64,000 bases of DNA. It comes from Verrucomicrobiota bacterium. Lineage in GTDB: Bacteria > Verrucomicrobiota > Verrucomicrobiia > Chthoniobacterales > UBA10450. Shown piece by piece: positions 33,883 through 54,957 of this stretch. The translations under genes were made by a program, and so were the position numbers. Each line of letters opens with the position of its first letter. The first letter of the stretch is position 1. The DNA lies in contig JBEEGW010000001.1 of assembly GCA_041167045.1 (NCBI GenBank), forward strand, positions 6,514 through 70,513, given 5' to 3'. The notes beneath the pieces are model-generated. The model saw only the letters and a list, made by a program, of their open reading frames with translations, was not told the DNA's origin and ran no database searches.

Positions 33883-33886
33883 CAGA

Positions 33887-34495: not shown

Positions 34496-34510
34496 GAACG
34501 TTTCTCGATG

Positions 34511-37714: not shown

Positions 37715-37762
37715 CTGCGCGCGGGATGATAGAGCAAATCAGCCGAAGATCACGCGCGAATC

Positions 37763-38218
37763 TTATGCGACCGCCTGAGCGCGCTGACGATCGAGATAAA
37801 CTTTGCAGATGCCTTTGATGCGAGTGAGCACGTAATAAATTGTCTGGCTGCGTACGCGCACCAGCTCGCTGCCGACGATGCGCGTCACGAAGTCGCTCGG
37901 AAGATCGAGAATCTCCTGCGGCGTGCGGCCTTCGAGGCCTTTACAAAGAATCGCCGTCATGGCGCGGGTGAGCGTTTGCACTTCCGGACCGAGCGTCATG
38001 CGAATGTGCGCCTTGCCCTCAAGATCGACATGAAGATAAACGCCGACCGTGTCCGCGCATTCCTCGTCCTTGCGCACGTCTTCGAGATCGAACTTCTCGC
38101 CTTCACGCGGTTCCTGTTTCTTCGCGTTGTCCGCGTAAGCCACGAGCGTTTCTCGCCGCTCATCTTCGGGCAGCGATTCGAAAAGATTGATGATCTTGTT
38201 CAGCTTCTCCGGGTACAT
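37763..38218 (-). CDS. SufE-like sulfur acceptor protein
   Basis: 151 aa. The pattern aligns to SufE/CsdE (conserved Cys in EECADTVGVYL, C-terminal RSQTIYYVLTRIK). Sits next to a sulfurtransferase gene. Confidence 0.5.
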   Translation of the reverse strand: MYPEKLNKIINLFESLPEDERRETLVAYADNAKKQEPREGEKFDLEDVRKDEECADTVGVYLHVDLEGKAHIRMTLGPEVQTLTRAMTAILCKGLEGRTPQEILDLPSDFVTRIVGSELVRVRSQTIYYVLTRIKGICKVYLDRQRAQAVA

Positions 38219-38224
38219 CGACGA

Positions 38225-39091
<867 letters not shown>

Positions 39092-39153
39092 AGCCCTAAA
39101 GTTTCCGTCCGCTCGCCAGCGCGAGCAAGCAGTTTTACCCTGGCCCCCGAATC

Positions 39154-39210
39154 AATAGTCAGAGATTCCTCGACTTCGCTCGGAATGACAAAATACAAAT
39201 AGGACGCATG
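39154..39210 (+). promoter_or_regulatory. conserved upstream leader element, copy B, with mini-uORF MTKYK (39185..39202) ending 5 nt before the peptidase ATG
   Basis: AATAGTCAGAGATTCCTCGACTTCGCTCGGAATGACAAAA followed by TACAAATAG GACGC ATGAAGATT. Both downstream genes begin M-K-I. Confidence 0.5.
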
Positions 39211-41424
39211 AAGATTCTCGTCATCGCAGTCAGTCTTGCCATTGCCGGTTCAGTTTTCGCACAGACGCCGTCGCCAAATGCGGCCGTGAATGGAAAACAT
39301 CCGTTCACATTCGAAGACATGATGGCGCTGAAGCGCGTCGGTGCGCCGCAGCCGTCGCCCGATGGGAAATGGGTCGTGTTGGACTGCGTCGATGTCGATC
39401 TTGCCGCGAACACGAAGATTTCGCATTTGTGGATCGTGCCAGCGAGCGGCGGTGAATCGAAGCGCTTGAATGAAACGCCGAATCATGAAGAGCGGCCGCG
39501 ATTTTCGCCCGATAGCAAACGCTTGATCTGGACGTCGAAAGCGACCGATCTGACGCAAATCTGGATGTGCGATTTCGATTCGAACGCAGGTTCGTTAGTC
39601 GGCAAACCGCATCAGCTTACAAACATTTCGACCGGCGCCGACGGCGCGATCTGGTCGCCAGATGGAAAGAACATTGTGTTCGTGTCGGCGGTGTATCCCG
39701 ATTGCAAAGACGACGCGTGCAACAAGCAGCGCGACGAAGAGCTGAAGGACAGCAAAGTGAAAGCGAAAATCTTCACGCGGCTGCTTTATCGACATTGGAA
39801 CGCGTTCACCGAATTCAAGCGCAGCCATTTGTTCGTCCTTAATGCAGACTCTTCTGTGGAGGCAGGCGTCTCGCCTGCGACATCTTCACAAACGCAGCCG
39901 GGGACGGCTGCCACCACAGCAGCACGCGATCTTACCCCCGGCGATCACGATGTGCCGCCGTTCAATCTCGGCGGTCAGGACATGTATGCGATTTCGCCGG
40001 ACGGCCAGGAGCTCGCTTACACGAGCAACATCGATGAAGTCGAAGCGACCAGCACGAACAACGAAATTTTCACTGTGCCGATGGCGGGCGGTGCGCCCAA
40101 GAAAATCTCTACCAGTCCCGGTGCCGATTCGACGCCACTCTATTCGCCGGATGGAAAATACATCGCCTGGCGATCGCAAGCCCACGCCGGCTTCGAAGCC
40201 GATAAATGGCGGCTCTTCGTAAAAGATCGTGAAAGCGGGCAAGTCCAAGACACAACTGCAACTCTCGATCGTTCTGTCGGCAGTTTCTGTTGGTGGGCCC
40301 GATTCGCACTGCTCTTTGCGACTGAATGGAGAGGCGAAACAGAATTCTATAACGTCATTCCCGGCATGGGCTCACACAAACCGTATGTTTCACCGCCGAC
40401 GAGATTCTCTGGGCACGCGGACGACCTCGCATGGTCGCAGAAAGTGCTTTTCTGCTCCGGCGCCACGGCAGCTGCGCCTAACGAGATCCTAAAGAACGAC
40501 GTCGACTATCCTGGTGACGGCATAATCTATGAAGCAGCGCACCCAGGAATGGTTCCGCTCACCCACATGAACGACGCGCTGTTGTCGAAGATCGACATGC
40601 CGCGGTTGGAGTCGTTCACGTTCAAAGGCGCGAACGACGAGGAGGTGCAGGGATTCATGATCAAGCCGCCGGGATTTGATCCGAGCAAAAGATATCCGCT
40701 GAAGCTTTTGATCCACGGCGGACCGCAAGGCTCGTTTGGAAATTCGTGGACGTATCGCTGGAACGCGGAGTTGATGGCCGTCGGCAACTCCGAAAGCTTT
40801 CGCGAGGGGGGCGGCTACGTGGTGGTGATGATCAACTTCCACGGCTCGACCGGTTACGGGCAGAAGTTTACCGATTCGATCAGCGGCGATTGGGGCGGCA
40901 AACCGTATGTCGATCTTATGCGCGGGCTCGATTACGTGGAGAAGACGTATCCGTTCATCGACAAGAACCGCGAGGCCGCGCTCGGCGCGAGCTACGGCGG
41001 TTACATGGCGAACTGGTTGCTCGGTCACACCGATCGCTTCAAATGTATCGTGTCGCACGACGGCGTGTTCAACAGCGAGTCGGCTTACGGCACGACCGAA
41101 GAACTTTGGTTCAACAATTGGGAATTCAAAGGTCCGCCGTGGAATAATCGCGAGCTTTACCGGAAATGGTCGCCGCACGAGTACGCGAAGAATTTCAAAA
41201 CGCCGACGCTGGTTGTGCACGGCCAGCTCGATTATCGGCTCGATGTTTCACAAGGCTTCGATCTTTTTACGACGCTGCAAACGCTGAAGGTGCCATCGAA
41301 GATGTTGTATTTCCCGGACGAAGGTCACTGGGTGCTCAAGCCGCAGAATTCGCGGCTTTGGTACAAAACGGTGAACGATTGGGTGGATCAGTGGTGCAGC
41401 GCAGCAGCGAATGCGAAAAACTGA
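39208..41424 (+). CDS. S9 family serine peptidase (N-terminal beta-propeller, C-terminal alpha/beta hydrolase)
   Basis: Signal peptide. TolB-like repeat region. Nucleophile elbow GASYGGYMANW plus Asp/His downstream. Confidence 0.85.
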   Translation: MKILVIAVSLAIAGSVFAQTPSPNAAVNGKHPFTFEDMMALKRVGAPQPSPDGKWVVLDCVDVDLAANTKISHLWIVPASGGESKRLNETPNHEERPRFSPDSKRLIWTSKATDLTQIWMCDFDSNAGSLVGKPHQLTNISTGADGAIWSPDGKNIVFVSAVYPDCKDDACNKQRDEELKDSKVKAKIFTRLLYRHWNAFTEFKRSHLFVLNADSSVEAGVSPATSSQTQPGTAATTAARDLTPGDHDVPPFNLGGQDMYAISPDGQELAYTSNIDEVEATSTNNEIFTVPMAGGAPKKISTSPGADSTPLYSPDGKYIAWRSQAHAGFEADKWRLFVKDRESGQVQDTTATLDRSVGSFCWWARFALLFATEWRGETEFYNVIPGMGSHKPYVSPPTRFSGHADDLAWSQKVLFCSGATAAAPNEILKNDVDYPGDGIIYEAAHPGMVPLTHMNDALLSKIDMPRLESFTFKGANDEEVQGFMIKPPGFDPSKRYPLKLLIHGGPQGSFGNSWTYRWNAELMAVGNSESFREGGGYVVVMINFHGSTGYGQKFTDSISGDWGGKPYVDLMRGLDYVEKTYPFIDKNREAALGASYGGYMANWLLGHTDRFKCIVSHDGVFNSESAYGTTEELWFNNWEFKGPPWNNRELYRKWSPHEYAKNFKTPTLVVHGQLDYRLDVSQGFDLFTTLQTLKVPSKMLYFPDEGHWVLKPQNSRLWYKTVNDWVDQWCSAAANAKN

Positions 41425-41433
41425 TTGTCGATC

Positions 41434-42651
41434 TTAGCGTCGACGTCTACCGAAAGAATAACCGCGATGCGTGCGGCCGCCGCCGATGGCGCGCTTGCCG
41501 CCGGACGCTGATTCCGGCTCGAAGAGCACGGTGTACTTGTAGGGAAAGCTTTCCAGTTTTAGTCGTGGAATCTTGCGACCGATGAAGCGCTCGATCGCCT
41601 GGAGCGCAGCCACTTCTTCGCCGTTCATGAGCGTAAAGGCGTCGCCCACATTTTGTGCGCGCCCGGTTCGCCCGATGCGATGCACATAATCTTCCGGATG
41701 CTCCGGCACATCGTAATTGATGACGTGACTGACGCCGGCGATGTCGAGCCCGCGCGCGGCGATATCGGTCGCGACCATCACTTCGTATTTACCGCTCTTA
41801 AAACCGTCGAGCGCTTCGATGCGTTCGCGTTGGGTGCGGTTGGAATGAAGCACGGCCACAGAATGCTGGCCTGCTTTCAGTTTATGCGCGATGCGATCGG
41901 CGCCGTGTTTGGTCCGCGAAAAAATCAGCGCGCTGTCGTAATTGGTGCGATCGAGCAATGCCATGAGCAGATCGAATTTCTGTTCGGCTGCGACCGGATA
42001 GACCGCGTGCGTGACCGTTTCGGCCGGCGAACGGCGCACACCGATTTCGACGAGCTCCGGATCGCGCAACACCCACGCAGCGAGCCGCTCGATTTCCGGC
42101 GGCAACGTCGCAGAGAACAAAAGTGTTTGTCGATCTTTCGAAATTTTGTCCACGATGCGCCGGACGTCGGGAAGAAATCCCATGTCGAGCATGCGATCGA
42201 CTTCATCGAGCACGAGAATGCTGACGTCGCGAAAATGGAGCGTGCCTTGTTCGAGATGATCGAGCAGGCGGCCGGGCGTCGCGGCGACGACGTCCATGCC
42301 GCGTTTCAAATCTTCGCGCTGTTTTCCATAACCGACTCCGCCGTGCACAACCGTCGCGCGAATGTCGGTGAAGCGTCCGTAATCGCGAAACGCGGTCTCG
42401 ACTTGCGCCGACAGCTCTCGCGTCGGCTCGAGCACGAGGCAACGAAATTTTCCGTGCTGCCCGAGCAGCGTCAAAATCGGCAGCGCGAAGGCGGCCGTCT
42501 TGCCCGTGCCCGTCTGGGCGGTGCCGATCAAATCTTTTCCAGCGAGAACGATCGGAAAGGCGCGGAGCTGGATCGGCGTCGGCTCGGTGAACCCCATGGC
42601 TTGGGTGCCGCGCACGACCTCGGCCGACAGTCCGAAATTATTAAATGACAC
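41434..42651 (-). CDS. DEAD-box ATP-dependent RNA helicase (RhlE-like)
   Basis: Q-motif, AQTGTGKTAAF, DEVDRM, SAT and HRIGRTGRAG motifs. Confidence 0.9.
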   Translation of the reverse strand: MSFNNFGLSAEVVRGTQAMGFTEPTPIQLRAFPIVLAGKDLIGTAQTGTGKTAAFALPILTLLGQHGKFRCLVLEPTRELSAQVETAFRDYGRFTDIRATVVHGGVGYGKQREDLKRGMDVVAATPGRLLDHLEQGTLHFRDVSILVLDEVDRMLDMGFLPDVRRIVDKISKDRQTLLFSATLPPEIERLAAWVLRDPELVEIGVRRSPAETVTHAVYPVAAEQKFDLLMALLDRTNYDSALIFSRTKHGADRIAHKLKAGQHSVAVLHSNRTQRERIEALDGFKSGKYEVMVATDIAARGLDIAGVSHVINYDVPEHPEDYVHRIGRTGRAQNVGDAFTLMNGEEVAALQAIERFIGRKIPRLKLESFPYKYTVLFEPESASGGKRAIGGGRTHRGYSFGRRRR

Positions 42652-42692
42652 GAGGCGACATTACGGGCCACGCGAAACGAATCAATGCGCAG

Positions 42693-43148
42693 ATGAAAAA
42701 TGACGCGATCCGCATTCTGGTGATGGCGGACACGCACGATCGCTTGCCCGGTAATATGTCGATCTTAGCCGAGGGCGCGGACGAGATCTGGCATTTGGGC
42801 GACGTCTGTTCGCCGCACATTCTGGAGGCGATCGAGAAACTCGGGTCGCCCGTCACGGTTGTGCGCGGAAATTGCGACAGCAATCGCAACTGGCCGCTGA
42901 TTGTCGATCTTGTGCGCGACGGTTTGAGATTTCGCCTACAACATATTCCGCCCGATCGTGCGCCCGCGAATGTCGATGTTGTTTTGCACGGCCACACCCA
43001 TGTGCCGCGCAACGAAAAACGAAGCGGCATTTTATTTCTCAATCCCGGCTGCGTGACGCGCCCGAACCGCGGCGCTGCGCCGAGTGTCGCGTGGCTTGTA
43101 ATTTCCAAGGAAGGAAAGCTAAATTGGAAATTGCAAACGTTGCGCTGA
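42693..43148 (+). CDS. metallophosphoesterase (YfcE / MJ0936 family)
   Basis: ILVMADTHD, HLGDV, GNCD and LHGHTH motifs. The start is called at the internal ATG (MKNDAIRIL) to avoid overlap with the helicase start. Confidence 0.75.
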   Translation: MKNDAIRILVMADTHDRLPGNMSILAEGADEIWHLGDVCSPHILEAIEKLGSPVTVVRGNCDSNRNWPLIVDLVRDGLRFRLQHIPPDRAPANVDVVLHGHTHVPRNEKRSGILFLNPGCVTRPNRGAAPSVAWLVISKEGKLNWKLQTLR

Positions 43149-43154
43149 GTGCAA

Positions 43155-45575
43155 TCACTCGCTGCGCAATGCGATGATCGGATCGATGCGGCCGGCGCGG
43201 CGCGCCGGAATCCAGCACGCGAGAGACGTCGCGGCGAAGAGAAGCAAGCCGACCGCAAAATAAATGGTCGGTCCCGCGCCCTTCACTTCGAAGAGGACGC
43301 TTTGCAGCGCGCGCGAGAGAATCAAGGAGCTGACGAGACCGATGCCCGAGCCAATGAGGAGCAATTTCATTCCATGCGAAAGAATCAACGCGCGAATCTG
43401 CGCTGGTCGCGCGCCGAGAGCGAGGCGAACGCCAATTTCACGAACGCGCTTCAACATGGTGTAAGCGAGTAGCCCGTACAGTCCGATCGTGGCCAGTAGC
43501 AATGCCAGGCCGGCGAAAACGGCGAAGAGAAAACTGAGCAGCCGTTGCGTGCCCCACGTTTCGCGCACGCGATCGCCCATCGGCCGCACGTCGAAGACTG
43601 GCTGCGCCGGATCGATCGCGGTGACGCTGTCGCGAATTGGTTTTTCGAGGGAATTGAGCCCGGCGCCGGCGCGGACGAAAAGATCGAGAGTGGTGCGTTG
43701 CGCTTGTGCCATCGAACAATAAATCACCGGCAGCGGCGCCATTTCATCGATCGCGTGAAAACGCATGCGCCCGACCACTCCGACGATCTCGGCCATGGCG
43801 TATCCTTCCTCGTCGTTGCCAACATCGACAGAAACGCGTTTCCCGATCGGATCTTCGTGTGGGAAAAACTGTTCGACCAAAGCTTGATCGACAATGATCA
43901 CGCGCGGTGACGTCGCCGTGTCGCGTTCGTTAAACGTGCGGCCGCGAAGGAGTGGCGTCTTGAGCGCAGCAAAATAATCACCGGTAATAATTTCCAAGTC
44001 TGCGCTTGGCATTTGACCAGGCGGAGGCTGCGCCGCGCCTTCACGCAGGAAACCGGTCTGCCAGCCGCCCATCAGCGGCGAGTTCGAGCCGATGCCGGCG
44101 CTCTGCACGCCGGGAAGTGCGCGCACTCGCTCGAGCAATGCCCTCGTGAACGTGACGACTTTCTCGCGACTCGAATATGAGCGCCACGCCAGCTCGAGGC
44201 GTGCCGTGAGTAAACCGCGCGGTTCGTATCCGAGCTGGAGCGATTGGATGCGCGAAAAGCTTGTCAGCACCAGCGCGGCCGCGATCAGTAGCGTCAGCGT
44301 GAGCGCGATCTCGCTGATGACGAGCCAGTCGCGCGTCCGTTTCGCTGACGGCGCATCGCCACTGCCGAGCGAGCCTGTTTTTAATGCGAGCTGGACATCA
44401 GCGCGCGAGGTTTGCCATGCCGGCCACAATCCGAACAGCACTGTCGTGAGCGATGCGATGGCAAAGGCAAAACCGAGCACCGGCAAGTCGAAGGAAATTT
44501 CCTGAAAGCGCGAGACGCCTTGCGGCGCCAACGTCATGAGCGCTTCGCGCACCCAAAGAGCGATGAAAAATCCAAGCGCTCCGCCCAGCAGCGCGATCAG
44601 AAAACTTTCGACCAAAAGTTGGCGAATGATTTGCCGGCGGCTCGCGCCAACCGCAGCGCGGATGGCAAACTCTCTCGCGCGCGCCGCGCCGCGGGCCGCA
44701 AATAAATTCGCGAGATTCGCGCACGCGATCAGCAACACCAATCCGACTGCGCCGAGAAGCAGGCCGAGATTCGTTCGATATTTTCCGACAAGATTTTCGA
44801 GCAGTGGCGTGACGACAACGCTCACTTGTGTGTTGGTCGCGGGATACGCTTTTTCCAAGCGCGCGGCGATCCCTTTCATCTCCGTGCGCGCAAGATCGAC
44901 AGTTACCCCGGGCTTGAGCCGGCCCCACACGAACATCATGGGATGATGCGAACGATCGAGCCACGCCGGATTGTTGCTGCGCCGGCCGAGCGAAAACCAC
45001 GCGTCCGTGTCCTGCGGCGAAGTCATTTCCGAGGGCATCACGCCGACGATCGTGAAATTCTGATCGTGTAAATTGATCGAGCGGCCAACTGCATTCGGGT
45101 CGCGAGTAAAAGCGCGCTGCCAGAGGCGATCGCTGATCACGACAACGGGCGGGCCGCCGACCTTGTCTTCGTCCTCGCTAAAAGTGCGCCCGATTTTCGG
45201 AGCCAGGCCGATAACATTGAAGAAATTTCGCGTCACTGAAGCGCAGGAAATTCGTTCGGCTTCGCGGCCAGGAATGCCGCTGAGGTTGCGCGATTCTTTG
45301 TGCGTGCAGGCGAGATGCTCGAAGACGGTGTTGTCGCGTTGCCAGTCGAAATAATCCGGCAGCGCGACGGAAAAATCCTGGCCGGGCCCGGAAGATTCGC
45401 TCAGCACCATGATGCGATCGGCATTCGGATACGGAAGCGGCCGCAACAAAACGGCGTTGACCACGCTGAAGATTGCGGTGTTCGCGCCCATGCCGAGCGC
45501 GAGCGTCAAAATGGCAATCGCGCTGAAGCCTGGCTGTTTCCACAGCGTGCGGACAGCGTAGCGCAGATCGTGCAT
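43155..45575 (-). CDS. ABC transporter permease, MacB/FtsX-like with two FtsX domains
   Basis: 806 aa. An N-terminal TM, a MacB-type periplasmic domain and duplicated FtsX 4-TM modules. Confidence 0.85.
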   Translation of the reverse strand: MHDLRYAVRTLWKQPGFSAIAILTLALGMGANTAIFSVVNAVLLRPLPYPNADRIMVLSESSGPGQDFSVALPDYFDWQRDNTVFEHLACTHKESRNLSGIPGREAERISCASVTRNFFNVIGLAPKIGRTFSEDEDKVGGPPVVVISDRLWQRAFTRDPNAVGRSINLHDQNFTIVGVMPSEMTSPQDTDAWFSLGRRSNNPAWLDRSHHPMMFVWGRLKPGVTVDLARTEMKGIAARLEKAYPATNTQVSVVVTPLLENLVGKYRTNLGLLLGAVGLVLLIACANLANLFAARGAARAREFAIRAAVGASRRQIIRQLLVESFLIALLGGALGFFIALWVREALMTLAPQGVSRFQEISFDLPVLGFAFAIASLTTVLFGLWPAWQTSRADVQLALKTGSLGSGDAPSAKRTRDWLVISEIALTLTLLIAAALVLTSFSRIQSLQLGYEPRGLLTARLELAWRSYSSREKVVTFTRALLERVRALPGVQSAGIGSNSPLMGGWQTGFLREGAAQPPPGQMPSADLEIITGDYFAALKTPLLRGRTFNERDTATSPRVIIVDQALVEQFFPHEDPIGKRVSVDVGNDEEGYAMAEIVGVVGRMRFHAIDEMAPLPVIYCSMAQAQRTTLDLFVRAGAGLNSLEKPIRDSVTAIDPAQPVFDVRPMGDRVRETWGTQRLLSFLFAVFAGLALLLATIGLYGLLAYTMLKRVREIGVRLALGARPAQIRALILSHGMKLLLIGSGIGLVSSLILSRALQSVLFEVKGAGPTIYFAVGLLLFAATSLACWIPARRAGRIDPIIALRSE

Positions 45576-45612
45576 AAACTTTTCTTCGCCGCCTAGAGCG
45601 CAGGAATAAAAT

Positions 45613-45828
45613 TTAGCTTTGTGCGCGTGTCTGTTTTGCCTGCTGGCTGCACGCTACATCCGTGCACTGCAACCCGGCCGCGGGCACGCGCACTGGGTGT
45701 TGTGCGAACTGCGAAATCGAAAACACGGCGCTCAAAATCAAAATCAAATAAGCGACTGCTTCGAAAAATCCCCGGCTTTTTTCTTCCGAGCGAATGAGCA
45801 ATGCATAAGTGGATTCTTGTTTATTCAT
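45613..45828 (-). CDS. hypothetical small membrane protein
   Basis: 71-aa ORF with one hydrophobic helix. No recognisable family. Confidence 0.2.
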   Translation of the reverse strand: MNKQESTYALLIRSEEKSRGFFEAVAYLILILSAVFSISQFAQHPVRVPAAGLQCTDVACSQQAKQTRAQS

Positions 45829-46016
45829 AAGGGTTGGTTGGTTGACGCCAACTCCTTATGCACGCCTCGTGCCAGCGGACGAGATGCCAATGAAAGCAGC
45901 TCGCCCGGAACGCTTTAACAATTTCGAGTGGCGCGTGCAACACCACGCCGTGTTCCGCGCGTGGGAACATTTCGTTCCGTTTTCGGGACACGGACGCGCT
46001 GTGTCGATTTTGCCCT

Positions 46017-46048
46017 TCGCGCGCGAAATGCGCGCGAATTATTTCTTC
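46017..46048. terminator. GC-rich hairpin (8-bp stem TCGCGCGC / GCGCGCGA, loop GAAAT) immediately downstream of the rplQ stop, with a T-run on the plus strand
   Basis: Seen in sequence. The U-tract is on the wrong strand for an rplQ terminator, so its function is uncertain; it may be bidirectional or an attenuator. Confidence 0.2.
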
Positions 46049-46518
46049 GCCGCTTCGCTCTTTTTCGATTTGCCGGCGGCTTTTTCGGCCGGCTCGGCGG
46101 ACGATTTCGCCGTCTTTCCCTTTTTGCCTTTTTCTTCCGGCGCGGTTTCTTCGACAACTTGCGGCGCATCCACCCATTCGATGAATGCCATCAGCGCCGA
46201 ATCACTTTTGCGCGCGCCGAGTTTCACGATGCGGGTGTAACCGCCGTTACGACTTGTCGATCTTGGCGCGAGGTCGTCGAACAATTTTTTTACGGCGACG
46301 CCCTGCCGCAAAACGGAAAGCGCGGTCCGCCGCGCATGGAGCGTTCCTTTTTTGCCGAGCGTCACCATTTTTTCCGCGAGCGGACGAACGGCCTTCGCTT
46401 TGGCGAGAGTGGTTTTGATGCGCTGGTGCTCGATCAAACTGCAGACCTGATTTGCGAGCATCGCTTTGCGATGCTCGGCGGTGCGGCCGAGCTTGATCGT
46501 TTTCTTGCGGTGTCTCAT
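46039..46518 (-). CDS. rplQ: 50S ribosomal protein L17
   Basis: Canonical L17 N-terminus [24 protein letters not shown] plus a Lys/Ala-rich C-terminal tail. Confidence 0.95.
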
Positions 46519-46527
46519 GTCGATCTT
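46518..46527 (-). repeat. motif copy abutting the rplQ start codon (mRNA sense ...CAAGATCGACATGAGA)
   Basis: TGTCGATCTT at 46518..46527. The rplQ ATG is the complement of 46516..46518. The rpoA-rplQ spacer is only 18 nt and has no Shine-Dalgarno sequence. Confidence 0.85.
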
Positions 46528-46536
46528 GCGCCGGGG

Positions 46537-47589
46537 TTATGCTCTTTCGGGAGCGGCGGCCGCAGCACCATTCGAATTCGCGCCATCTACGCTCGCCACC
46601 GGCATGTCCACCAGGCCAGTGTCAAATTTCATCCCAAGCCCGAGCCCGAGCTGCTGAAGTTTGTCTTTGATTTCGTTGAGCGATTTCTTGCCGAAGTTTC
46701 GATACTTCAACATTTCGGCTTCCGATTTTTGCGCGAGCTGACCGACAGTCGTGATGTTTGCGTTGTTCAAACAATTGGCCGCGCGCACGCTCAGTTCGAT
46801 TTCATTCACGCTCATGTTGAGCAGCTTCTTGAGCTTCATGTTTTCCTCGCTCACGCCGGCTGGCGTTTCGTCGAACTCGATCACCTCTTCATTGAAGTTA
46901 ACGAAGACATCGAGATGGTGGCGCAGGATGGCCGACGCCTGCAAAAGTGCATCGTCCGGCGTCAGGCGTCCGTCCGTCCAAACTTCCAGAAGAAGCTTGT
47001 CGTAATCGGTGCGCTGACCGACACGGGTGTTTTCTACCGCGTATTTCACGCGCGTGACGGGTGAAAAAATGGAATCGATCGGAATGAGCCCGATCGGTTG
47101 ATCGGCGCGTTTGTTTTCTTCGCCGGTGGCGAAACCGCGGCCGACGCGCACCTCGAGCTCGGCATCAAATTTATGTTTCTTATCGAGCGTGCAGATGACC
47201 TGCTTCGGATTGAGAACTTCGTAACCTTGCGCGAGCTGAATGTCGCTGGCGGTGACTTCGCCGTCTTTGTTTACGGTGAGCGAAAGCTTGCGCGGCTCAT
47301 GATCGACCGCTTGGAATTTTACGCGCTTCAGATTGAGCACGATGTCAGTCACGTCTTCGACCACGCCTGGCAAAGTCGCAAACTCATGCTGCGCGCCGGT
47401 GATTTTCACGGCGGTGATCGCTGCGCCTTCGAGGGACGAAAGCAGCACGCGGCGGAGTGAATTTCCGACGGTGTGGCCGTATCCAGCTTCAAAAGGTTCC
47501 GCGATAAATTTCGCGTAGGTATCTGTGGCTGTCTCCTCGTCCTTGACGAGGGTTTTTGGCATTTCAAAACGACCGTAACGAACTGGCAT
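46537..47589 (-). CDS. rpoA: DNA-directed RNA polymerase subunit alpha
   Basis: Complete NTD and CTD (VNEIELSVRAANCLNNANITTVGQL). The start is called at MPVRYGRFEMPKTL; the ORF-track N-terminal extension to 47667 lacks homology. Confidence 0.9.
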   Translation of the reverse strand: MPVRYGRFEMPKTLVKDEETATDTYAKFIAEPFEAGYGHTVGNSLRRVLLSSLEGAAITAVKITGAQHEFATLPGVVEDVTDIVLNLKRVKFQAVDHEPRKLSLTVNKDGEVTASDIQLAQGYEVLNPKQVICTLDKKHKFDAELEVRVGRGFATGEENKRADQPIGLIPIDSIFSPVTRVKYAVENTRVGQRTDYDKLLLEVWTDGRLTPDDALLQASAILRHHLDVFVNFNEEVIEFDETPAGVSEENMKLKKLLNMSVNEIELSVRAANCLNNANITTVGQLAQKSEAEMLKYRNFGKKSLNEIKDKLQQLGLGLGMKFDTGLVDMPVASVDGANSNGAAAAAPERA

Positions 47590-47755
47590 GGGATTTAGAC
47601 TTTCGGATCGCCGGGTTACCCCTGACGAGTGCGGCTTCGCGTCAACTGACGGAAACCCAGGGACCAACGGCGCAACTTCAAAACTCGCTGCGAACGTGGA
47701 ATCAACACCAAACTACGCAGAAATCAAGCGCGGATTTTTATGTCGATCTTGGGTC

Positions 47756-48193
47756 TTAACCCTCGAGAATCTCGTCCGGCAATTCGTTGTCGCCAGTCGC
47801 TTTCTTGGGGAAATGTTGCGCGAGAAGTTTTCCTGTTTCTTCAATAGCCTCGATGATTGCCTGGTTGAACTTCTCATTCTGGAAATGCATGCGCATCGAA
47901 TCCACCAATCGCTGCCAGAATTCATCGCCGCATTTTTCATGGACACCGCTGTCTCCGATGACGGCAAACTTGCGCGCTCGCGGCGCGACGAAAATCAGAA
48001 CGGCATTGCGTTCCTGCGTTTTGTCCATGCCGAGCTTTTGAAATTTCGTCTGCGCGAGCGGCAGCGCGTCGCTTTCAAATTGCCCGCGCTGAATAAAAAC
48101 GCGGATTTGTCCTGAAGTCTTCGCTTCCGCTTCCTTGATCGCACTTACGATGCGGTCGTGATCGAGATGACTTAAAAAACGGTGCGTACGCAT
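47756..48193 (-). CDS. TPM-domain-like protein (hypothetical)
   Basis: 145 aa. Weak TPM / repair-of-PSII-like pattern (NAVLIFVAPRARKFAVIGDSG). Confidence 0.45.
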   Translation of the reverse strand: MRTHRFLSHLDHDRIVSAIKEAEAKTSGQIRVFIQRGQFESDALPLAQTKFQKLGMDKTQERNAVLIFVAPRARKFAVIGDSGVHEKCGDEFWQRLVDSMRMHFQNEKFNQAIIEAIEETGKLLAQHFPKKATGDNELPDEILEG

Positions 48194-48196
48194 TTG

Positions 48197-48988
48197 TCAC
48201 CAACTGCCGCTTGAGCCGCCGCCACCGAAACTTCCGCCGCCCCCGCTAAAGCCCGAGAAGCCACCGCCCGACGTACCAGAAGACCAGCCGCTGCCGCTGG
48301 ACCATCCTCCGACATACGGACCGCCGAATCCGGAATACGCAAACCCGCCGCGCCGTCGCCCGATGCGGATGAACATTAAGAGAACGATCATGAAAATCAG
48401 GAAGCCGAGAAGGCCTGCTCCGCCAGCAGCGTTGCCCCGTTTTTCCCTATCAGTTTTCCCGAGGCCGGTGTATTCGCCACGAATGGCCTTGCAGACCAGG
48501 TCAATTCCTTCCGCGAGCCCGCCTTCATAATCTCCATTCCGAAAATGAGGCTGAATGTGCCGGGTGCGAATATCGAAGGCAGTCACATCGGGCAGCGCGC
48601 CCTCGAGCCCATAACCGACTTGTATCGACATCTTGTGATCCTGCACGAAAACCAGGACGACCACGCCATTGCGCCGATCTTTTTGCCCGACCTGCCACGC
48701 TTGCGCGATGCGCTGCGCATAATCGTCGAGCGAAGATTCGCTCTCCATTTTTGGAAACAGAGCGACGACAACCTGATCCGAAGTTTCGCGCTCAAATTGC
48801 GCGAGCTGTTCGTTAAAACGAACCGCCGCGCTTTTTGAAACGACGCCGGCGTAATCGTTGAAGTAGCCCGCTGGTTTCGGCGGAATGATTTCCGCGGCGT
48901 GCGCGCAGACCGCGCTCACAATTAGCGCGAGGGCCGCAAACGACGGGATCCTTCGGCCTCGCTTCGCTGCGTTCAGGATGACGTGCAA
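48197..48988 (-). CDS. TPM domain protein (YgcG-like) with Gly/Ser-rich C-terminal tail
   Basis: Signal peptide, a TPM core (NGVVVLVFVQDHKMSIQVGYGLEG), a C-terminal TM and a GGS-rich tail. Confidence 0.6.
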   Translation of the reverse strand: MHVILNAAKRGRRIPSFAALALIVSAVCAHAAEIIPPKPAGYFNDYAGVVSKSAAVRFNEQLAQFERETSDQVVVALFPKMESESSLDDYAQRIAQAWQVGQKDRRNGVVVLVFVQDHKMSIQVGYGLEGALPDVTAFDIRTRHIQPHFRNGDYEGGLAEGIDLVCKAIRGEYTGLGKTDREKRGNAAGGAGLLGFLIFMIVLLMFIRIGRRRGGFAYSGFGGPYVGGWSSGSGWSSGTSGGGFSGFSGGGGSFGGGGSSGSW

Positions 48989-48991
48989 AGA

Positions 48992-49627
48992 TTATGGGCT
49001 CGCTGCTGGCGATGGCGCCGGCGAATTTCCGAAATTGAAATTCACGCTCGGCGCTTTTTCCGCGCCAGACTGCGATTGGAAGAAGGCGCGCGGTTTGAAT
49101 CCGAACATCTTGTTCAACATGTTCGTTGGAAAAGTTTCCAGCGCCGTATTCAAATCCTGCACTGCGGTGTTGTAATTGTTTCGTTCCACCGAAATCCGGT
49201 TTTCCGTTCCCTCCAATTGCGCCTGCAAATTCTGGAACGCTTCGGTTGCGCGCAGCTGCGGGTAATTTTCGCTGACCACCAAGAGGCGCGATAAAGCGCT
49301 GCTCAATTGTCCCTGCGCCGCTTGGAATTGTTGAAGCTGCGCCGCGTCCGTCGGCGCCTTGTTCGGATCGAGTTGCACGCGTCCCACGCTGGCGCGCGCA
49401 TTCGTCACTTCGGTCAAAGTCGACTTCTCAAAATTCGCCGCGCCTGATACCGTGTTTACGAGATTCGGAATCAAATCCGCGCGTCGCTGGTAGACGGATT
49501 GCACATCCGCCCATTTCTTGTTCGCATTTTGTTCCAGCGTCACCAGCCGGTTGTAACTGCCGCAGCCAGTGAATCCGAAGATGATTGCTAACCCCGCCAC
49601 GACGCTTCCAAGAGAAAACCTATTCAT
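48992..49627 (-). CDS. lemA: LemA family lipoprotein
   Basis: Lipobox GFTGCGS plus a LemA core. The start is called at the MNRFSLG ATG at 49627. Confidence 0.8.
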   Translation of the reverse strand: MNRFSLGSVVAGLAIIFGFTGCGSYNRLVTLEQNANKKWADVQSVYQRRADLIPNLVNTVSGAANFEKSTLTEVTNARASVGRVQLDPNKAPTDAAQLQQFQAAQGQLSSALSRLLVVSENYPQLRATEAFQNLQAQLEGTENRISVERNNYNTAVQDLNTALETFPTNMLNKMFGFKPRAFFQSQSGAEKAPSVNFNFGNSPAPSPAASP

Positions 49628-49678
49628 AAGCAAGATCGACAAGTAACGCGCGCATCGTTTCCGAATCAAACGGGCAAG

Positions 49679-50305
49679 TCAACTCGCGACCGGTGTGGAG
49701 TGGGACGTTTCGGCCGCGGTTGGCGCCGGGCGCGCGGTTGGCAGATAGCGCCTTCGTAATTCATCCGCGTTTGGCAGCTCATCGAGATTGCGCAAGCCGA
49801 AGTGCTCCAGGAAAAATTGCGTGGTCTCGTAAAGCAGCGGACGGCCCGGCACTTCGGCGCGGCCGGTGATTTTGACGAGACCGCGCTCGAGCAAAGTTTG
49901 CAGGACGCCGTCGATGGCCACGCCGCGCACGGCTTCAATGTCGGCGCGCGTGATGGGCTGGCGATAGGCGATGATGGCGAGCGTTTCGAGCGCGGGCGGC
50001 GTGAGGCGTGGCGGTTTCGGCAACGGAAATAACTGCCGGACCCATTGTGCGTACTGCGGATCGGTGCCGAGCTGCCAGCCTTCGGCTTTTTCTACGATTT
50101 GGAAAGCGCGGCCTTGTTCGACATTCTCGATCTTGAGCTGCTCGAGCGCAGCGGCAACTTCCGGCTCGCGCACTTTTGCGAACTCGTTAGGCGAAAATGA
50201 ATCTTCCGCGCCGGCGCCGCGCAAAAGATCGACAATTTCTTTCGTGGCGAGCGGTTTTTGCGCGCTGAAAAGAAGCGCTTCGATCACGCGGGCGAGTGTT
50301 TTCAA
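49679..50305 (-). CDS. scpB: segregation and condensation protein B
   Basis: Tandem winged-helix ScpB pattern (VIEALLFSAQKPL...). Confidence 0.85.
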   Translation of the reverse strand: MKTLARVIEALLFSAQKPLATKEIVDLLRGAGAEDSFSPNEFAKVREPEVAAALEQLKIENVEQGRAFQIVEKAEGWQLGTDPQYAQWVRQLFPLPKPPRLTPPALETLAIIAYRQPITRADIEAVRGVAIDGVLQTLLERGLVKITGRAEVPGRPLLYETTQFFLEHFGLRNLDELPNADELRRRYLPTARPAPTAAETSHSTPVAS

Positions 50306-51702
50306 TTTGCTCCGATCGCGGTTTGGATCGCGTCGGCGATCCGATTTGCCTGTATGTCGATCTTGTCCCGCTCGCGGCCTTCAATCAACAGACGAATCTT
50401 CGGTTCGGTGCCGGAATAGCGCAAAAGCACGCGGCCTTTGCCGGCGAGTTCGCGCTCCACTTCGTCGCGCAATTTCACGACTTCGCGCAAGTCTTCGATT
50501 GGCGGTTTCGATTTCACTTTTAGGTTGCGTTGGGCTTGCGGATATTTTTTCAGGCAACCTTTCAATTCGCTGAGCGGCTGGCCTGTCGATTTCATGATCC
50601 GCAAAATTTGCAGCGCGCTGATGATGCCGTCGCCCGTGGTAGTGAAATCGCGAAAGATCATATGGCCGCTTTGTTCGCCGCCAAGATTGAGATTTCGCCC
50701 GACCATTTCTTCGATCACATAACGATCGCCCACTTTTGTGCGAATGACTTTGCCGCCGGCGCTCGCGAGCGTTTCATCCAAACCAAAATTGCTCATGACC
50801 GTCGCGACGAGCGTGTTTTCGCGCAGCCGTTCCGCGCGCAAAAGATCGACAGCCGCGATGGCGAGGATTTCGTCACCATCAACAATCTCGCCTTTTTCAT
50901 CGCAAAGCAGAACACGATCGGCATCGCCGTCGTGAGTGATGCCGATCTGCGCCTTGTTCTCTTTCACCAGCCGCTGGATTTCCGCCGGAAACATGCTGCC
51001 GCATTCCGCGTTGATGTTCGTTCCGTTCGGCGTGTTGTGCGCGACGAAGACGTCGGCGCCGAGTTCGCGCAAAATACACGGCGTCGATTTGTAAGCCGCA
51101 CCGTTCGCGACATCGACCGCGACGCGCATTTTTTCCAGCGACATCGAGCGCGGGAAACTGGTTTTGGCAAACTCGACATAACGGCCGAGCGCATCATCGA
51201 TGCGCCGGGCGCGCCCGATTTTTCCGGCGGTGGGACGAATGGAATCAATCTCGCCGGTGAAAACGAGCTGCTCGATCTCCTGTTCGATCTGGTCGTCGAG
51301 TTTGTAACCGTCGTGCCGAAAAAATTTGATGCCGTTATCCTCATAAGGATTATGCGACGCGGAGAGGACGATGCCGGCATCAGCGCGCAGCGATCGCGTG
51401 ATGTAAGCGACGCCCGGCGTGGGCAACGGACCAATGAGCAGAACATCGACGCCGAGCGAAGTGATGCCGGCGACGAGCGCGTTTTCGAGCATGTAACCGG
51501 AAAGCCGCGTGTCTTTGCCGAGAACAATTTTCGGACGCGCTCCAGCCGGAAGTGTGCGCGGATTGCGTTTCGTAAAAATGTGCGCGGCGGCTCGGCCGAG
51601 CTTGAGCGCGGTCTCAGCGGTGACGGGCTCGACATTGGCGATTCCGCGCACGCCGTCGGTGCCGAAGATTTTTTTCTCGGGCGATGTCGATCTTGTGGTC
51701 AT
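50302..51702 (-). CDS. glmM: phosphoglucosamine mutase
   Basis: FGTDGVRG, the active-site SASHNPYEDNG and C-terminal domains. The start is called at the ATG at 51702 (MTTRSTSPEKKIFGTDGVRG); the ORF-track extension to 51780 is not supported. Confidence 0.9.
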   Translation of the reverse strand: MTTRSTSPEKKIFGTDGVRGIANVEPVTAETALKLGRAAAHIFTKRNPRTLPAGARPKIVLGKDTRLSGYMLENALVAGITSLGVDVLLIGPLPTPGVAYITRSLRADAGIVLSASHNPYEDNGIKFFRHDGYKLDDQIEQEIEQLVFTGEIDSIRPTAGKIGRARRIDDALGRYVEFAKTSFPRSMSLEKMRVAVDVANGAAYKSTPCILRELGADVFVAHNTPNGTNINAECGSMFPAEIQRLVKENKAQIGITHDGDADRVLLCDEKGEIVDGDEILAIAAVDLLRAERLRENTLVATVMSNFGLDETLASAGGKVIRTKVGDRYVIEEMVGRNLNLGGEQSGHMIFRDFTTTGDGIISALQILRIMKSTGQPLSELKGCLKKYPQAQRNLKVKSKPPIEDLREVVKLRDEVERELAGKGRVLLRYSGTEPKIRLLIEGRERDKIDIQANRIADAIQTAIGAN

Positions 51703-51711
51703 GTCGATCTT
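51685..51711 (-). repeat. two direct copies of TGTCGATCTT, 17 nt apart, at the glmM start
   Basis: Exact 10-mers at 51685..51694 and 51702..51711. The glmM ATG (complement of 51700..51702) is formed by the motif's 3' flank (AAGATCGACATG). Confidence 0.9.
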
Positions 51712-51715
51712 AGTT

Positions 51716-53461
51716 TCACGGCGCACTTTCCTTAGGCGCAGACTTCGTCCGATCGTAATCAGCGAAAAATATGCATTCATTTTGCAGACCGAGCAGCGTC
51801 GCCCATTTCAGCGAAAACTTTTGTAAATCAGCGCGCAAAATCACGGCTGCCCAATCTTTATATTCGCCTTTCAGAATGTCGTTCAATTTATTCTCACTGC
51901 CGCTGATCGGCGTGAGGTAAAGCCCGTTCACCGGCGCGCCGAATGTGCCGTAGTCGTTGAAATCAGTAAAGGCGCGCTGCGTTTCCGGAAGCCAAATGCT
52001 GCGGCGGTCGGCATACCAGGCGACGGCCCATGGCATGTCCGAGGCGATGATTTCTTCGGGCTTCATCCAATCGTTGATGACTGAAATGTAAGGCGGCACG
52101 TAAGGCGGCCAGCGAATGCTCGGCTTGAAAGCGGCGAGCGCGGGGAAGGAAAGAATCATGGGCAAAGCGCAAAGGAGAAAGAGCGACGTTTGAAAACCGA
52201 TGCGCGCGATGCGCATGGTAATCTCGAGCCGATTCCAAAGCACGAGCAGGAATGCCAGGCCGTAGCAAGTCATGAGTGGAATAAAAATGAGATGCAATTG
52301 GTTCGCGGCCACGCCTTGTTCCTCGTTAATTCCGTAAGTGGCCATTCCAAAAAACGCGCCCACCCACATCGCCAGAATCATCCAGCGAATCGCGCCGGTA
52401 TCGGGACGCTTGAAAGCGTGCAGAAGACTCGCGAAAAAAAACGGCGCGACCACGCTCCATCCCAAATACTGGAAGAACCGATTCATCTGTCCGATTAGAT
52501 TTGCAATGATTTTATTTTTAAATGCGGCCGGGTCCGCGCCAGCAAGATCGAGATTGGCGTGACGCATCCAGGCGCCTTCGGTTTGATGAACGCCGTCGAG
52601 CACGGAATAAATCGCGGCTCCCCCTGGATGGCCGCAGACCAGATAATTTCGTGCGAGCCACGGCGCATAAACAATTGCGAATGCAGCGAGGACGATCAGC
52701 GCGCTCCATCCGCGCGGCCGGAAAAAGAGAACGCACAAGAGCAGCGCACCGGCGAACATCCAGATGGTGAGCGCGTGTGTAAGCGCGAGCAATCCAAAGC
52801 CGATTCCGATCGCTGCGAGCCAGAAGCGCGATTGCGTGCCGGCGATCTGCGTCTGCGCTGCGCGCACCGTGCAGTAAATTGTTGCGTTGAAAATCAGCAG
52901 CAAAAGCATCTGCGGCAAACCGGAGAGCGAGTATTGCCACATGGTGTCGCACAGCAGAATGAGCCCGCAGGCCAGCAGCGCGATGCGTTCATCAAAAAGC
53001 CGGCGCGCCGTAAAAAAAAGCACGACGTTTGAGAGCAGGAACAACAAGATCGACATAGCAGCGATCGCTTTGTCGCCCACATAAACCGAATCACGCACCG
53101 TCATCTTCCAATGCGCCTTGAATGGACGCAGCGCGATCGCGTCCACCAATGGCGGCAATGGCGCGTTGTAAGTGTCGATCCAAATTTTTTGAGGCACATT
53201 TTTTCCGTGGCTCTGCAATTGCGCGACGGCGCGCGGCCGAATGAAATTCGTGCGCCAACCGTGGCCGCGCGCGATTTCTCGGCCGATTTGCGCCTGGTCC
53301 ATCGCTTGCGACGTAGCCAGCCCGCGGAATTCGTGCATCAAATAAAAGAGCGCGAGTCCGGCGATCGCGACCACGACGAGCGCGCGCTTTACCCAAATGG
53401 CGAGGCCGCCGGCTTCGAGCGCATGCACGGCGCGCTGAACGAACTCAGCGCTACCGGGCAT
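51716..53461 (-). CDS. hypothetical polytopic membrane protein
   Basis: 581 aa with more than 10 predicted TM helices and a periplasmic C-terminal domain. Overlaps the 3' end of the downstream regulator gene by 11 nt. Confidence 0.4.
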   Translation of the reverse strand: MPGSAEFVQRAVHALEAGGLAIWVKRALVVVAIAGLALFYLMHEFRGLATSQAMDQAQIGREIARGHGWRTNFIRPRAVAQLQSHGKNVPQKIWIDTYNAPLPPLVDAIALRPFKAHWKMTVRDSVYVGDKAIAAMSILLFLLSNVVLFFTARRLFDERIALLACGLILLCDTMWQYSLSGLPQMLLLLIFNATIYCTVRAAQTQIAGTQSRFWLAAIGIGFGLLALTHALTIWMFAGALLLCVLFFRPRGWSALIVLAAFAIVYAPWLARNYLVCGHPGGAAIYSVLDGVHQTEGAWMRHANLDLAGADPAAFKNKIIANLIGQMNRFFQYLGWSVVAPFFFASLLHAFKRPDTGAIRWMILAMWVGAFFGMATYGINEEQGVAANQLHLIFIPLMTCYGLAFLLVLWNRLEITMRIARIGFQTSLFLLCALPMILSFPALAAFKPSIRWPPYVPPYISVINDWMKPEEIIASDMPWAVAWYADRRSIWLPETQRAFTDFNDYGTFGAPVNGLYLTPISGSENKLNDILKGEYKDWAAVILRADLQKFSLKWATLLGLQNECIFFADYDRTKSAPKESAP

Positions 53462-54884
53462 TTTTCGAATCCGCGGGCGACTTGTCGATCTTGTCGGAAT
53501 TGGTCGCGTTCATTTCATTAATTTTGCGGTGCAAAGTCCGCCGGCTGATGCCGAGTTTCTTTGCCGCTGCCGTAATGTTTCCACTCGTCGTCGCGAGCGC
53601 CTGCATAATCAACTTTCTCTCCGTCGCGTGCAGATCGAGCGGACTCGTTTTTTCGGCAAATGCTTTCGCCGGTGTGATACCGGCGGGCAAAGAGACAGCC
53701 GTCGCTTCTCGTAAAGTCATGGGCAAATCACGCAGGGTAATTTTCGCGCCGGTCGCCATGACGACTCCATGCTCGATCGCGGTGCGCAGCTCGCGCACGT
53801 TCCCGGGCCAATTGTAAGTGAGCAGGATATTCATCGCGTCCGCGTCCAACTCACGCACCGGCTTTTCGTTCGTCTTGGCGAAATGACGCAGAAATTCGCG
53901 TACCAGCAGCGGAATGTCTTCCTTGCGATCGCGCAGCGGCGGCATCGTGATATGCACGACGTTCAAGCGAAAATAAAGATCGTCGCGAAACTTTTCTTCC
54001 TTCACCAACTTCTCGAGATCCTTGTTCGTCGCGGCAATCAAACGCACGTCGGCGCGCAGGGTTTGATTGCCGCCCACGCGTTCGAATGCGCGTTCTTCGC
54101 TGATCACGCGGAGTAATTTAATCTGTGTGCTCGGATCGATCTCGCCGATCTCATCGAGAAAAATGGTGCCGCCGTTTGCTTGCTCGAAGCGGCCGACGCG
54201 CCGTTCGTGCGCGCCGGTGAAGGCGCCGCGCTCGTGCCCGAACAATTCGCTCTCGAGCAACGTCGGCGAAAGCGCCGCGCAATGCACCGTCACAAACTTC
54301 GCTTTGTTGCGCCGGCTTAAATTATGAATGGCATGCGCGGCCAGTTCCTTGCCCGTGCCAGTTTCGCCTTCGATCAAAACGTTGGCGGAGGACGGAGCGA
54401 CTTGCCGGATCGTGTCGAGCACTTCGTGCAGGGCGGGCGATGCGCCGATGATATTTTCGAGGCCGTAACGCTCGTCCACTTGCTGGCGCAGCGTGCGGTT
54501 CTCCTGTTCCACGCGGCGAGTTTGCAGCGCACGCGCGATCAACATCTCGACCTTGTCGAGATTGAGCGGCTTGGTTACAAAATCGTACGCGCCGCGCTTC
54601 ATCGCTTCGACCGCGGTGTCGACCGAGCCGTACGCCGTCATCATGATGACAATCGGCGGATGCGGAATGTTCAGTGTGCGCTCGATCAATGTCATTCCGT
54701 CGTCGCCGGCCAGTCGCAGATCGGTCAGCACAAGGTCGATTGGCTCGCGCTCGAGTACGTCCATTGCGCCGCGAATGTCTTCGGCCACATAGGTATCGTA
54801 ATCATTCTCGAGTAAACGCCGCAGCCCGTCGCGCGTGTGCTTTTCGTCATCGACGATGAGGATGGTAGGCTGGAGCGAGTCCAT
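53451..54884 (-). CDS. sigma-54-dependent Fis-family response regulator (REC + AAA+ + HTH)
   Basis: Receiver domain (LIVDDE...D), GESGTGKEL, the GAFTGA motif and a C-terminal Fis-type HTH. Confidence 0.9.
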   Translation of the reverse strand: MDSLQPTILIVDDEKHTRDGLRRLLENDYDTYVAEDIRGAMDVLEREPIDLVLTDLRLAGDDGMTLIERTLNIPHPPIVIMMTAYGSVDTAVEAMKRGAYDFVTKPLNLDKVEMLIARALQTRRVEQENRTLRQQVDERYGLENIIGASPALHEVLDTIRQVAPSSANVLIEGETGTGKELAAHAIHNLSRRNKAKFVTVHCAALSPTLLESELFGHERGAFTGAHERRVGRFEQANGGTIFLDEIGEIDPSTQIKLLRVISEERAFERVGGNQTLRADVRLIAATNKDLEKLVKEEKFRDDLYFRLNVVHITMPPLRDRKEDIPLLVREFLRHFAKTNEKPVRELDADAMNILLTYNWPGNVRELRTAIEHGVVMATGAKITLRDLPMTLREATAVSLPAGITPAKAFAEKTSPLDLHATERKLIMQALATTSGNITAAAKKLGISRRTLHRKINEMNATNSDKIDKSPADSKNAR

Positions 54885-54957
54885 GTGGATTACTGAGCAA
54901 CTTTGACTCTATTGCCCAATCTCTCAAATCGCGAACTCGCCGCAGGCCCGCGAAAGT

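Follow-up and report, generated by a model that had tools for sequence, protein, structure and literature searches.

A hyper-abundant 10-nt genomic word and its contacts with gene starts and stops in a Candidatus Udaeobacter-like clade of the Verrucomicrobiota

The genomic word AAGATCGACA, a 10-mer, is hyper-abundant in and specific to a Candidatus Udaeobacter-like clade of the Chthoniobacterales (Verrucomicrobiota). The word acts at the DNA level, not at the RNA or protein level, and is a new addition to the small class of hyper-abundant genomic words. Its copies repeatedly touch start and stop codons, a pattern that the initial annotation attributed either to permissive gene boundaries or to a role in translation initiation or coupling. 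These contacts are very probably a by-product of the word's abundance, and the word in all likelihood does not drive initiation or coupling. The explanation that fits best overall, and is on balance probable, is a DNA-level word resembling the DUS and USS of Neisseria and Haemophilus that settles at permissive sites.

The window is the whole 64,000-nt stretch of DNA presented here, and is the reverse complement of part of a 1,853,024-bp metagenome contig (3300044827 Ga0467040_0000001) whose JGI gene calls were used. The region analysed is a continuous 76,251 bp (window coordinates -5543 to 70707) with 69 complete genes and is 93.5% coding. Relatives of its RpoA carry the names Chthoniobacterales, Candidatus Udaeobacter or Verrucomicrobiota. 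L003, the one further copy of this stretch, matches it at 100%, leaving no strain polymorphism at the word sites there.

The abundance of the word is evident under each null model. The GATCGAC core occurs 114 times in the window, compared with 21.4 ± 4.9 in dinucleotide-preserving shuffles of the same sequence, and the 13-mer picked out by the earlier reader (TAAGATCGACATG) occurs 58 times with up to two mismatches, compared with 1.4 expected. Anchoring on the core yields the consensus (C/T)AAGATCGACA(T/A), dispersed on both strands across positions 1..64000. The window contains 67 exact 10-mers; the 76-kb region contains 75, for which a second-order Markov model predicts 0.34. This amounts to ~220 times the expectation, ~1 copy per kb and ~1% of the DNA. 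All one-off variants in the 76 kb together number ~40, fewer than the 75 exact copies, and none of them is altered at the central ATCG. The word as a whole is not a palindrome (its reverse complement is TGTCGATCTT), palindromic sequence being confined to the inner GATC and TCGA.

Placement of the word is irregular in spacing and largely intragenic. Distances between copies in the 76 kb are random (CV 1.03), and even spacing is rejected on that basis. Among the 75 copies, 62 (83%) lie wholly within ORFs, 35 sense and 27 antisense, and they are read in five of the six possible frames (K-I-D 21, V-D-L 19, D-R 8, S-I-L/F 8, R-S-T 6, C-R-S 0). Six DNA-metabolism genes (PriA, PolX, MTase, Fpg, ScpB and a helicase) hold 16 copies compared with 9.4 expected (P=0.02), a weak hint, in a post hoc grouping of small sample size, of the DUS-like preference for genome-maintenance genes. 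Hairpins from inverted pairs are essentially absent: within genes there are two overlapping GTCGATCGAC palindromes plus two loose inverted pairs, outside genes there are none, and the copies that lie between convergent genes are single, not paired. Rfam, tRNA and Tandem Repeats Finder scans of the window account for no copies. Searching IMG/VR for pairs of copies no more than 30 nt apart, a test of phages with low sensitivity, returned 38 contigs, each with only a local pair and no dispersed word.

Across rpoA loci of Verrucomicrobia, ~150 in all and taken from both genomes and metagenomes, only two dispersed hyper-abundant words appear, AAGATCGACA and GCCTAACGA. The first is carried by this genome, by L006, L089, L096 and L127, and by L166-L170. 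The second is carried by L024, L020, L013, L022 and L023, and reaches 30 copies in 21 kb of L024, where 0.14 are expected. GCCTAACGA is unrelated to AAGATCGACA rather than a dialect 1-2 nt removed, and contains neither GATC nor any other palindrome. In a neighbour-joining tree of rpoA, the two words mark neighbouring clades, while a deeper clade has neither, and word density is graded across lineages. Some genomes hold both: L168 has 39 copies of AAGATCGACA and 10 of GCCTAACGA in 20.8 kb, and the 76-kb region described here has 75 and 7, respectively, with 0.25 copies of GCCTAACGA expected. Both words are present on the 1.6-Mb contig Ga0070741_10000001. The "top 10-mers" of L026, L027, L061, L075, L083 and L045 were considered as further words and rejected as tandem repeats that are not dispersed.

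The word arose in place. At the orthologous sites of eight word-less relatives it is found in 0 of 77 site pairs, and the ten positions of the word are 60% identical there compared with a background of 77%, with no indels, which indicates point substitution at sites that were already similar. At rplQ, an ancestral-looking AAGGACGACATG became AAGATCGACATG; some of the word-creating substitutions changed amino acids. Once present, copies tend to be retained. In four word-bearing relatives at ~78% identity, 11 of 34 site pairs are kept exactly, ~4 times the 2.8 expected, and the flanks of word sites are 73% identical compared with 78% for the background.

Several copies lie at or near gene starts. 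The copy at 46516..46528 (minus strand) falls in the 18-nt spacer after the rpoA stop and directly precedes the ATG of rplQ (46518-46516), as the initial annotation held; the 13-mer there is CAAGATCGACATG, and so lacks the TAA that had been assigned to it. At glmM, TAAGATCGACATG is indeed present (51700..51712, minus strand) and its ATG at 51702 is a plausible alternative start, although the gene caller places the start at a GTG at 51726. This copy begins 4 nt after the TGA stop of the upstream PMT_2 gene, the closest approach in the region to joint use as stop and start. A second copy lies 17 nt downstream (51683..51695, minus strand) and is read as T-R-S-T in the N-terminal extension of GlmM. 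The ATG or TAA within such a word can mislead annotators' start calls, as at glmM. The copy at 31331..31343 (minus strand, TAAGATCGACATG) supplies the ATG (31333-31331) of an HD-domain (YhaM-like) gene, which follows TAAGATCGAC, and the orthologous start in L167 has the same copy.

Other copies near starts run in the reverse orientation. One on the plus strand at 28312..28324 adjoins the ATG (28312) of a DDAH/amidinotransferase gene (27488-28312, minus strand), an arrangement also seen in L169, and another at 49631..49643 (plus strand) sits 4 nt upstream of the lemA ATG (49627). The copy at 34463..34475 (plus strand) is read antisense as M-S-I-L two codons past the called start of a PPIase gene (34480), and is kept in L089, L167 and L168. 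The copy at 32366..32378 (plus strand) is internal to a 428-aa gene (31358-32644), where it is read antisense as M-S-I-F. The copies that the initial annotation listed at these four sites and at the HD-domain gene are all present.

Stop codons are supplied by the word in three cases, each time as a T followed by the word's first AA. TAAGATCGACAAT at 12373..12385 (plus strand) provides the TAA (12373) of a Mo-oxidoreductase gene and fills the 11-nt gap to a convergent fpg-like gene, and TAAGATCGACATC at 58482..58494 (plus strand) provides the TAA (58482) of a gene with a PG-binding domain (57558-58484); both had been reported correctly. The third, absent from the earlier list, is TAAGATCGACAAT at 41424..41436 (minus strand), which provides the TAA (41436-41434) of a DEAD-box helicase gene (41434-42651) and fills the 9-nt gap to a convergent peptidase gene. 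This copy is common to L006 and L127. Non-word relatives retain only GCTAA at 41436: TAA and ATG codons already in place merely share bases with the ends of the word. The variant stop noted earlier near 16109 is the one-off TAAGATCGAT (16109..16118, plus strand), whose TAA ends gene 15410-16111. The TAG proposed as the stop of gene 54958-55437 is out of frame, the true stop being a TAA after the 3' end of the one-off variant TTAGATCGACA (54959..54971, minus strand). A further intergenic copy (47739..47751, minus strand) lies 5 nt past the stop of gene 47756-48193.

How much of this pattern exceeds chance depends on the null. With uniform placement, 11 of 74 copies fall within 5 nt of a start or stop compared with 2.8 expected (~4-fold), and no more than 6 of the 69 genes have a copy this close to their start, those copies lying in both orientations. 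Density is 0.88 per kb wholly inside ORFs compared with 3.0 per kb elsewhere (P=3e-4). When copies are placed separately inside and outside ORFs, the excess in this genome falls to 12 compared with 5.5 expected within 5 nt (P=0.002; ~2-fold) and 14 compared with 8.7 within 15 nt (P=0.03). It is not reproduced in four other word-bearing genomes (L166-L169), each analysed with its own gene calls, where 6 copies compared with 5.0 expected lie within 5 nt and 7 compared with 8.2 within 15 nt. Pooling the five genomes gives 21 copies within 15 nt compared with 16.9 expected (P=0.13). Taken together, the stratified null and the lack of replication in four genomes indicate that the boundary effect is mostly intergenic tolerance. 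The residual excess in this genome is small and unreplicated, and the data come close to showing no enrichment within 15 nt after correction for tolerance, the outcome that the initial annotation regarded as contradicting a boundary effect. Its first proposal, accumulation of the word at gene boundaries as permissive sites, is supported by the two densities, by the more divergent flanks and by the sharing of TAA and ATG codons already in place.

Of the possible identities, that of a DUS/USS-type sequence for DNA uptake or self-recognition receives the largest single share of confidence, though still a tentative one. In this model, a competence machine would have a surface receptor that prefers DNA fragments bearing the word, homologous recombination of the fragments taken up would spread and maintain it (molecular drive), and purifying selection on proteins would limit its spread. 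In the by-product reading of the boundary contacts, which is very probable, constraint in this very compact, SD-poor genome is lowest at the extreme ends of ORFs and in the few nucleotides that flank them, and the word ends (T)AA... and ...ACA(TG) can overlap a TAA or ATG already present, which lets copies settle flush against it. A direct precedent for edge-of-gene accumulation was reported by van Passel, namely a bias of USS to gene termini and dozens of ORFs in Neisseria whose annotated start is the ATG of a DUS (PMC2346458). The start and stop geometry is on its own ordinary, reproducing the accumulation at gene edges seen for uptake sequences.

Still more tentatively, AAGATCGACA and the GCCTAACGA of the neighbouring clade might together serve Candidatus Udaeobacter-like Verrucomicrobia as sequences for DNA uptake or self-recognition, which would make them the first of the DUS/USS type outside Proteobacteria. 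In the literature found, sequence-specific uptake signals are described only in Neisseriaceae and Pasteurellaceae (bioRxiv 10.1101/2025.10.24.684340). The literature search returned no description of AAGATCGACA or of uptake-like words in Verrucomicrobia and no documentation of natural transformation in Verrucomicrobia or Udaeobacter, and no relevant k-mer survey of new uptake sequences; a paper on ComEC evolution makes no mention of Verrucomicrobia. No competence genes are among those called within the 76 kb of the 1.85-Mb contig.

The main rival to the uptake reading is a role like that of HIP1, in which the word would serve the chromosome (nucleoid organisation, methylation-linked marking or stimulation of recombination) without sequence-specific uptake. 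Such a role is unlikely, though it draws on several of the same observations. The ~220-fold over-representation falls in the 15- to 300-fold range of HIP1, and the sites are conserved as HIP1 sites are (PMC5861425). The word contains GATC (and TCGA), and its conservation and hyper-abundance fit a HIP1-like function other than uptake equally well. The word might be read or marked by a conserved orphan adenine methyltransferase. A thiG-adjacent orphan beta-class N6-adenine methyltransferase gene (29540-30280) is denser in the word than any other gene here. The enzyme is encoded in six of six word-bearing contigs, this one and five further contigs in which it is 75-87% conserved, in a set of hits picked by similarity that comprised word-bearing genomes only. 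Against this role, the word lacks palindromic symmetry, beta-class N6-adenine methyltransferases do not typically act on an asymmetric 10-bp site, and the sister word GCCTAACGA has neither GATC nor another palindrome. The two readings partly merge, since HIP1 is itself reported to enhance natural transformation (bioRxiv 10.1101/2024.09.10.611283).

Neutral replenishment, in which a context-specific repair or mutation bias (very-short-patch-like or templated) converts near-matches into a functionless word, is improbable. Such a bias would be compatible with the graded density across lineages and with the origin of the word by point substitution at pre-similar sites, as in the change from AAGGACGACATG to AAGATCGACATG at rplQ. 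Known repair biases produce modest enrichment of 4- to 6-mers, not a ~220-fold excess of a 10-mer. Exact copies also far outnumber one-off variants, and sites are kept ~4 times over expectation between genomes at 78% identity. For HIP1, Xu et al. took such site conservation as evidence of selection over replenishment (PMC5861425).

The word might also be a polar guide or recombination hotspot of the Chi or KOPS kind, a set of sites for an abundant DNA-binding protein, or a self-marker for defence, a group of readings with a very low probability. Chi and KOPS/AIMS are likewise short, lineage-specific, over-represented oligomers, and Chi and KOPS both differ between lineages. Such words show strong strand polarity relative to replication, whereas AAGATCGACA is split 35 plus to 40 minus in the 76 kb, with both strands mixed in every 10-kb bin. 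This distribution excludes Chi- and KOPS-type words; a polarity of 75% is incompatible with it (P=4e-5), and GC skew is near zero along the region. A density of 1 per kb is far greater than that of regulator sites, and no literature or family match was found for the word.

A translation signal, in which the word before an ATG replaces an SD sequence or mediates termination-reinitiation coupling (TAA-GATCGAC-ATG) and the boundary copies are functional, is more doubtful still. Its appeal lies in the three to four starts directly after the word, the three TAA stops that form part of it and the copies at the HD-domain start, the DDAH start and the PPIase N-terminus that are kept in word-bearing relatives, together with the residual 2-fold boundary excess in this genome (P=0.002). 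A few copies at -1 to -10 before an ATG or overlapping a TAA do resemble SD or coupling signals. The bulk of the copies argue otherwise, as 83% lie deep within ORFs, on either strand and spread over five frames, and the boundary copies occur in both orientations. The TAA and ATG of one copy never act as stop and start at once in the gene calls, the boundary excess is not repeated in four other genomes, and the conservation of boundary copies (~1 in 3) is no higher than that of internal ones.

The absence of SD sequences does not rescue a role in translation. The initial annotation correctly observed that none is present where the word abuts a start. This is nothing special in an organism that barely uses them: an SD-like 4-mer at -18 to -4 occurs in only 7 of the 69 genes, leaving ~90% without one. 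The word itself has no anti-SD complementarity and no GGAGG-like core. At rplQ, the start copy is absent from all relatives, including the word-bearing L006, L089, L096 and L127, and AGGA or GGAG occupies the spot in four of six relatives (e.g. CGCGAGGACGACATG and CGCAGGAGCGTCATG). The rplQ spacer here is two substitutions away from the SD-like spacer of the relatives, which indicates that the word overwrote such a spacer rather than acting as one.

Finally, the many identical short copies could be taken for the remains or termini of a miniature mobile element, or for an assembly or adapter artefact, but this is scarcely credible and is effectively refuted by the orthologue alignments, in which copies stand in frame in conserved genes with no indels; there is also no extended conserved flank beyond ~12 nt, Tandem Repeats Finder finds nothing in the window, and the presence of the word in independent JGI, ENA, NCBI and Logan assemblies shows that it is not an artefact.

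Should the uptake reading be true, natural transformation biased towards self DNA would follow for an uncultured soil lineage that ranks among the most abundant, together with a turnover of words among closely related clades, in which they can also coexist. Two unrelated words in sister clades, with some genomes holding both, offer a natural system in which to follow the origin, competition and replacement of such words. The word also provides a handle on whether these dominant soil bacteria exchange DNA by transformation, through the 10-mer as a probe and the profiling of candidate receptors in genomes that hold either word or neither.

Among known systems, the Ssn/NTS hairpin-repeat system was considered and rejected, as its repeats are intergenic hairpins (PMC11893778). 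HIP1 (GCGATCGC), described only in cyanobacteria in the literature found, is over-represented to the same order within and between ORFs. Its sites are kept between genomes, and GATC in the word is accompanied by orphan methyltransferases in the same genomes (PMC5861425, PMC4390886). HIP1 is an 8-nt palindrome found phylum-wide, whereas AAGATCGACA is 10 nt, non-palindromic and confined to a narrow clade, and the companion word GCCTAACGA has no GATC. A periodicity of 10-90 kb along the chromosome is a further mark of HIP1-type words; over the 76 kb covered here, local spacing is random (CV 1.03). The SD and coupling signals differ in their anti-SD complementarity, and in that the word occurs in both orientations, is mostly intragenic and is unconserved at rplQ.

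The DUS of Neisseriaceae (GCCGTCTGAA and its dialects) and the USS of Pasteurellaceae (AAGTGCGGT / ACAAGCGGT) differ from the word in host, here an uncultured member of the Verrucomicrobiota, and their sequences are unrelated to it. Roughly half of DUS and USS lie in terminators, often as inverted pairs (bioRxiv 10.1101/2025.10.24.684340), whereas inverted-repeat or terminator copies are essentially absent here and only ~17% of copies fall outside ORFs. Two unrelated words coexist in one genome, which a single receptor does not obviously predict, and any link of AAGATCGACA to uptake is inferred. The likenesses are nonetheless extensive. Like the DUS and USS, AAGATCGACA belongs to the 9- to 12-nt non-palindromic words that occur ~1 per kb without strand bias. 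It is likewise intragenic with a strong frame preference and enriched at non-coding or permissive positions, in keeping with the description of DUS and USS as conserved words in permissive regions (Treangen et al., PMC2397512). The word is kept while its flanks are more divergent, it is biased to gene termini, and its ATG-containing copies coincide with annotated starts. As with the DUS and USS, it is specific to its clade, and related clades carry other words.

Initiation of translation in this lineage appears to be largely independent of Shine-Dalgarno sequences, a reading suggested by the scarcity of SD-like 4-mers at -18 to -4, which precede only 7 of the 69 complete genes of the whole 76,251-bp region (window coordinates -5543 to 70707). 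Gene overlaps of 4 nt are common in the region. The start of glmM (51700-51726, minus strand) is ambiguous between GTG at 51726 and ATG at 51702. The called GTG start produces an 11-nt overlap with the upstream gene. Reading from the ATG yields MTTRSTSPEKKIFGTDGVRG. Two copies of the dispersed word, separated by 17 nt, lie at this start. A tRNA-Thr (TGT) gene (16196-16269, plus strand) occupies the spacer after the gene that stops at the variant word TAAGATCGAT.

Word density among the region's genes is highest in an orphan beta-class N6-adenine DNA methyltransferase (29540-30280, plus strand; 4 copies in 741 nt), which is encoded between thiG and the YhaM-like HD gene without a restriction partner. 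The methyltransferase is kept at 75-87% in five other contigs, and all five contain the abundant 10-mer AAGATCGACA. The 428-aa gene at 31358-32644, labelled SPFH in the initial annotation, matches no family in Pfam or NCBIfam. The 353-nt spacer upstream of this gene harbors a c-di-AMP (ydaO-type) riboswitch (32773-32921, minus strand; 59.5 bits).

The 8-mer GATCGACA is absent from a 4.6-kb block (-203 to 4438; 1-4438 within the window) where about 6 copies are expected. This block comprises five genes (gpsA, plsY, mnmG, cdd, and a VTT-domain gene) with a lowered GC3 (0.55-0.60, compared with ~0.65) and may reflect stronger constraint or recent import.

An independent sequencing run yielded a 10-kb contig (L003; Logan SRR24887411_37371) with 100% identity to our contig, which shows that this population was also recovered from a second sample. 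Other repeats occur among the sequences compared. In contig L005, nine GTAGGTGT / ACACCTAC repeats fall mostly inside a 203-aa gene (20632-21243, or ~69152-69763 in window numbering, beyond the window; GC3 0.87), suggesting a repetitive Thr/Pro-type protein. Short tandem-repeat arrays with periods of ~8-41 nt lie close to the rpoA region in several verrucomicrobial relatives (L027, 125-355; L026, 2584-2946; L061, 17365-17652; L075, 44-200; L083, 16816-16860) and bear no relation to the dispersed words.

A second dispersed word, GCCTAACGA, is unrelated to AAGATCGACA. The 76-kb region contains 7 copies of it where only 0.25 would be expected, with window copies at 13620, 17054, and 40476 (plus strand) and 14851, 50184, and 59310 (minus strand). 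GCCTAACGA is also found in contigs L024, L020, L013, L022, L023, and L168, reaching 30 copies per 21 kb in L024. Neighboring clades are marked by GCCTAACGA and AAGATCGACA, respectively, yet the two can coexist in one genome; the 20.8-kb L168 holds both (GCCTAACGA, n = 10; AAGATCGACA, n = 39).
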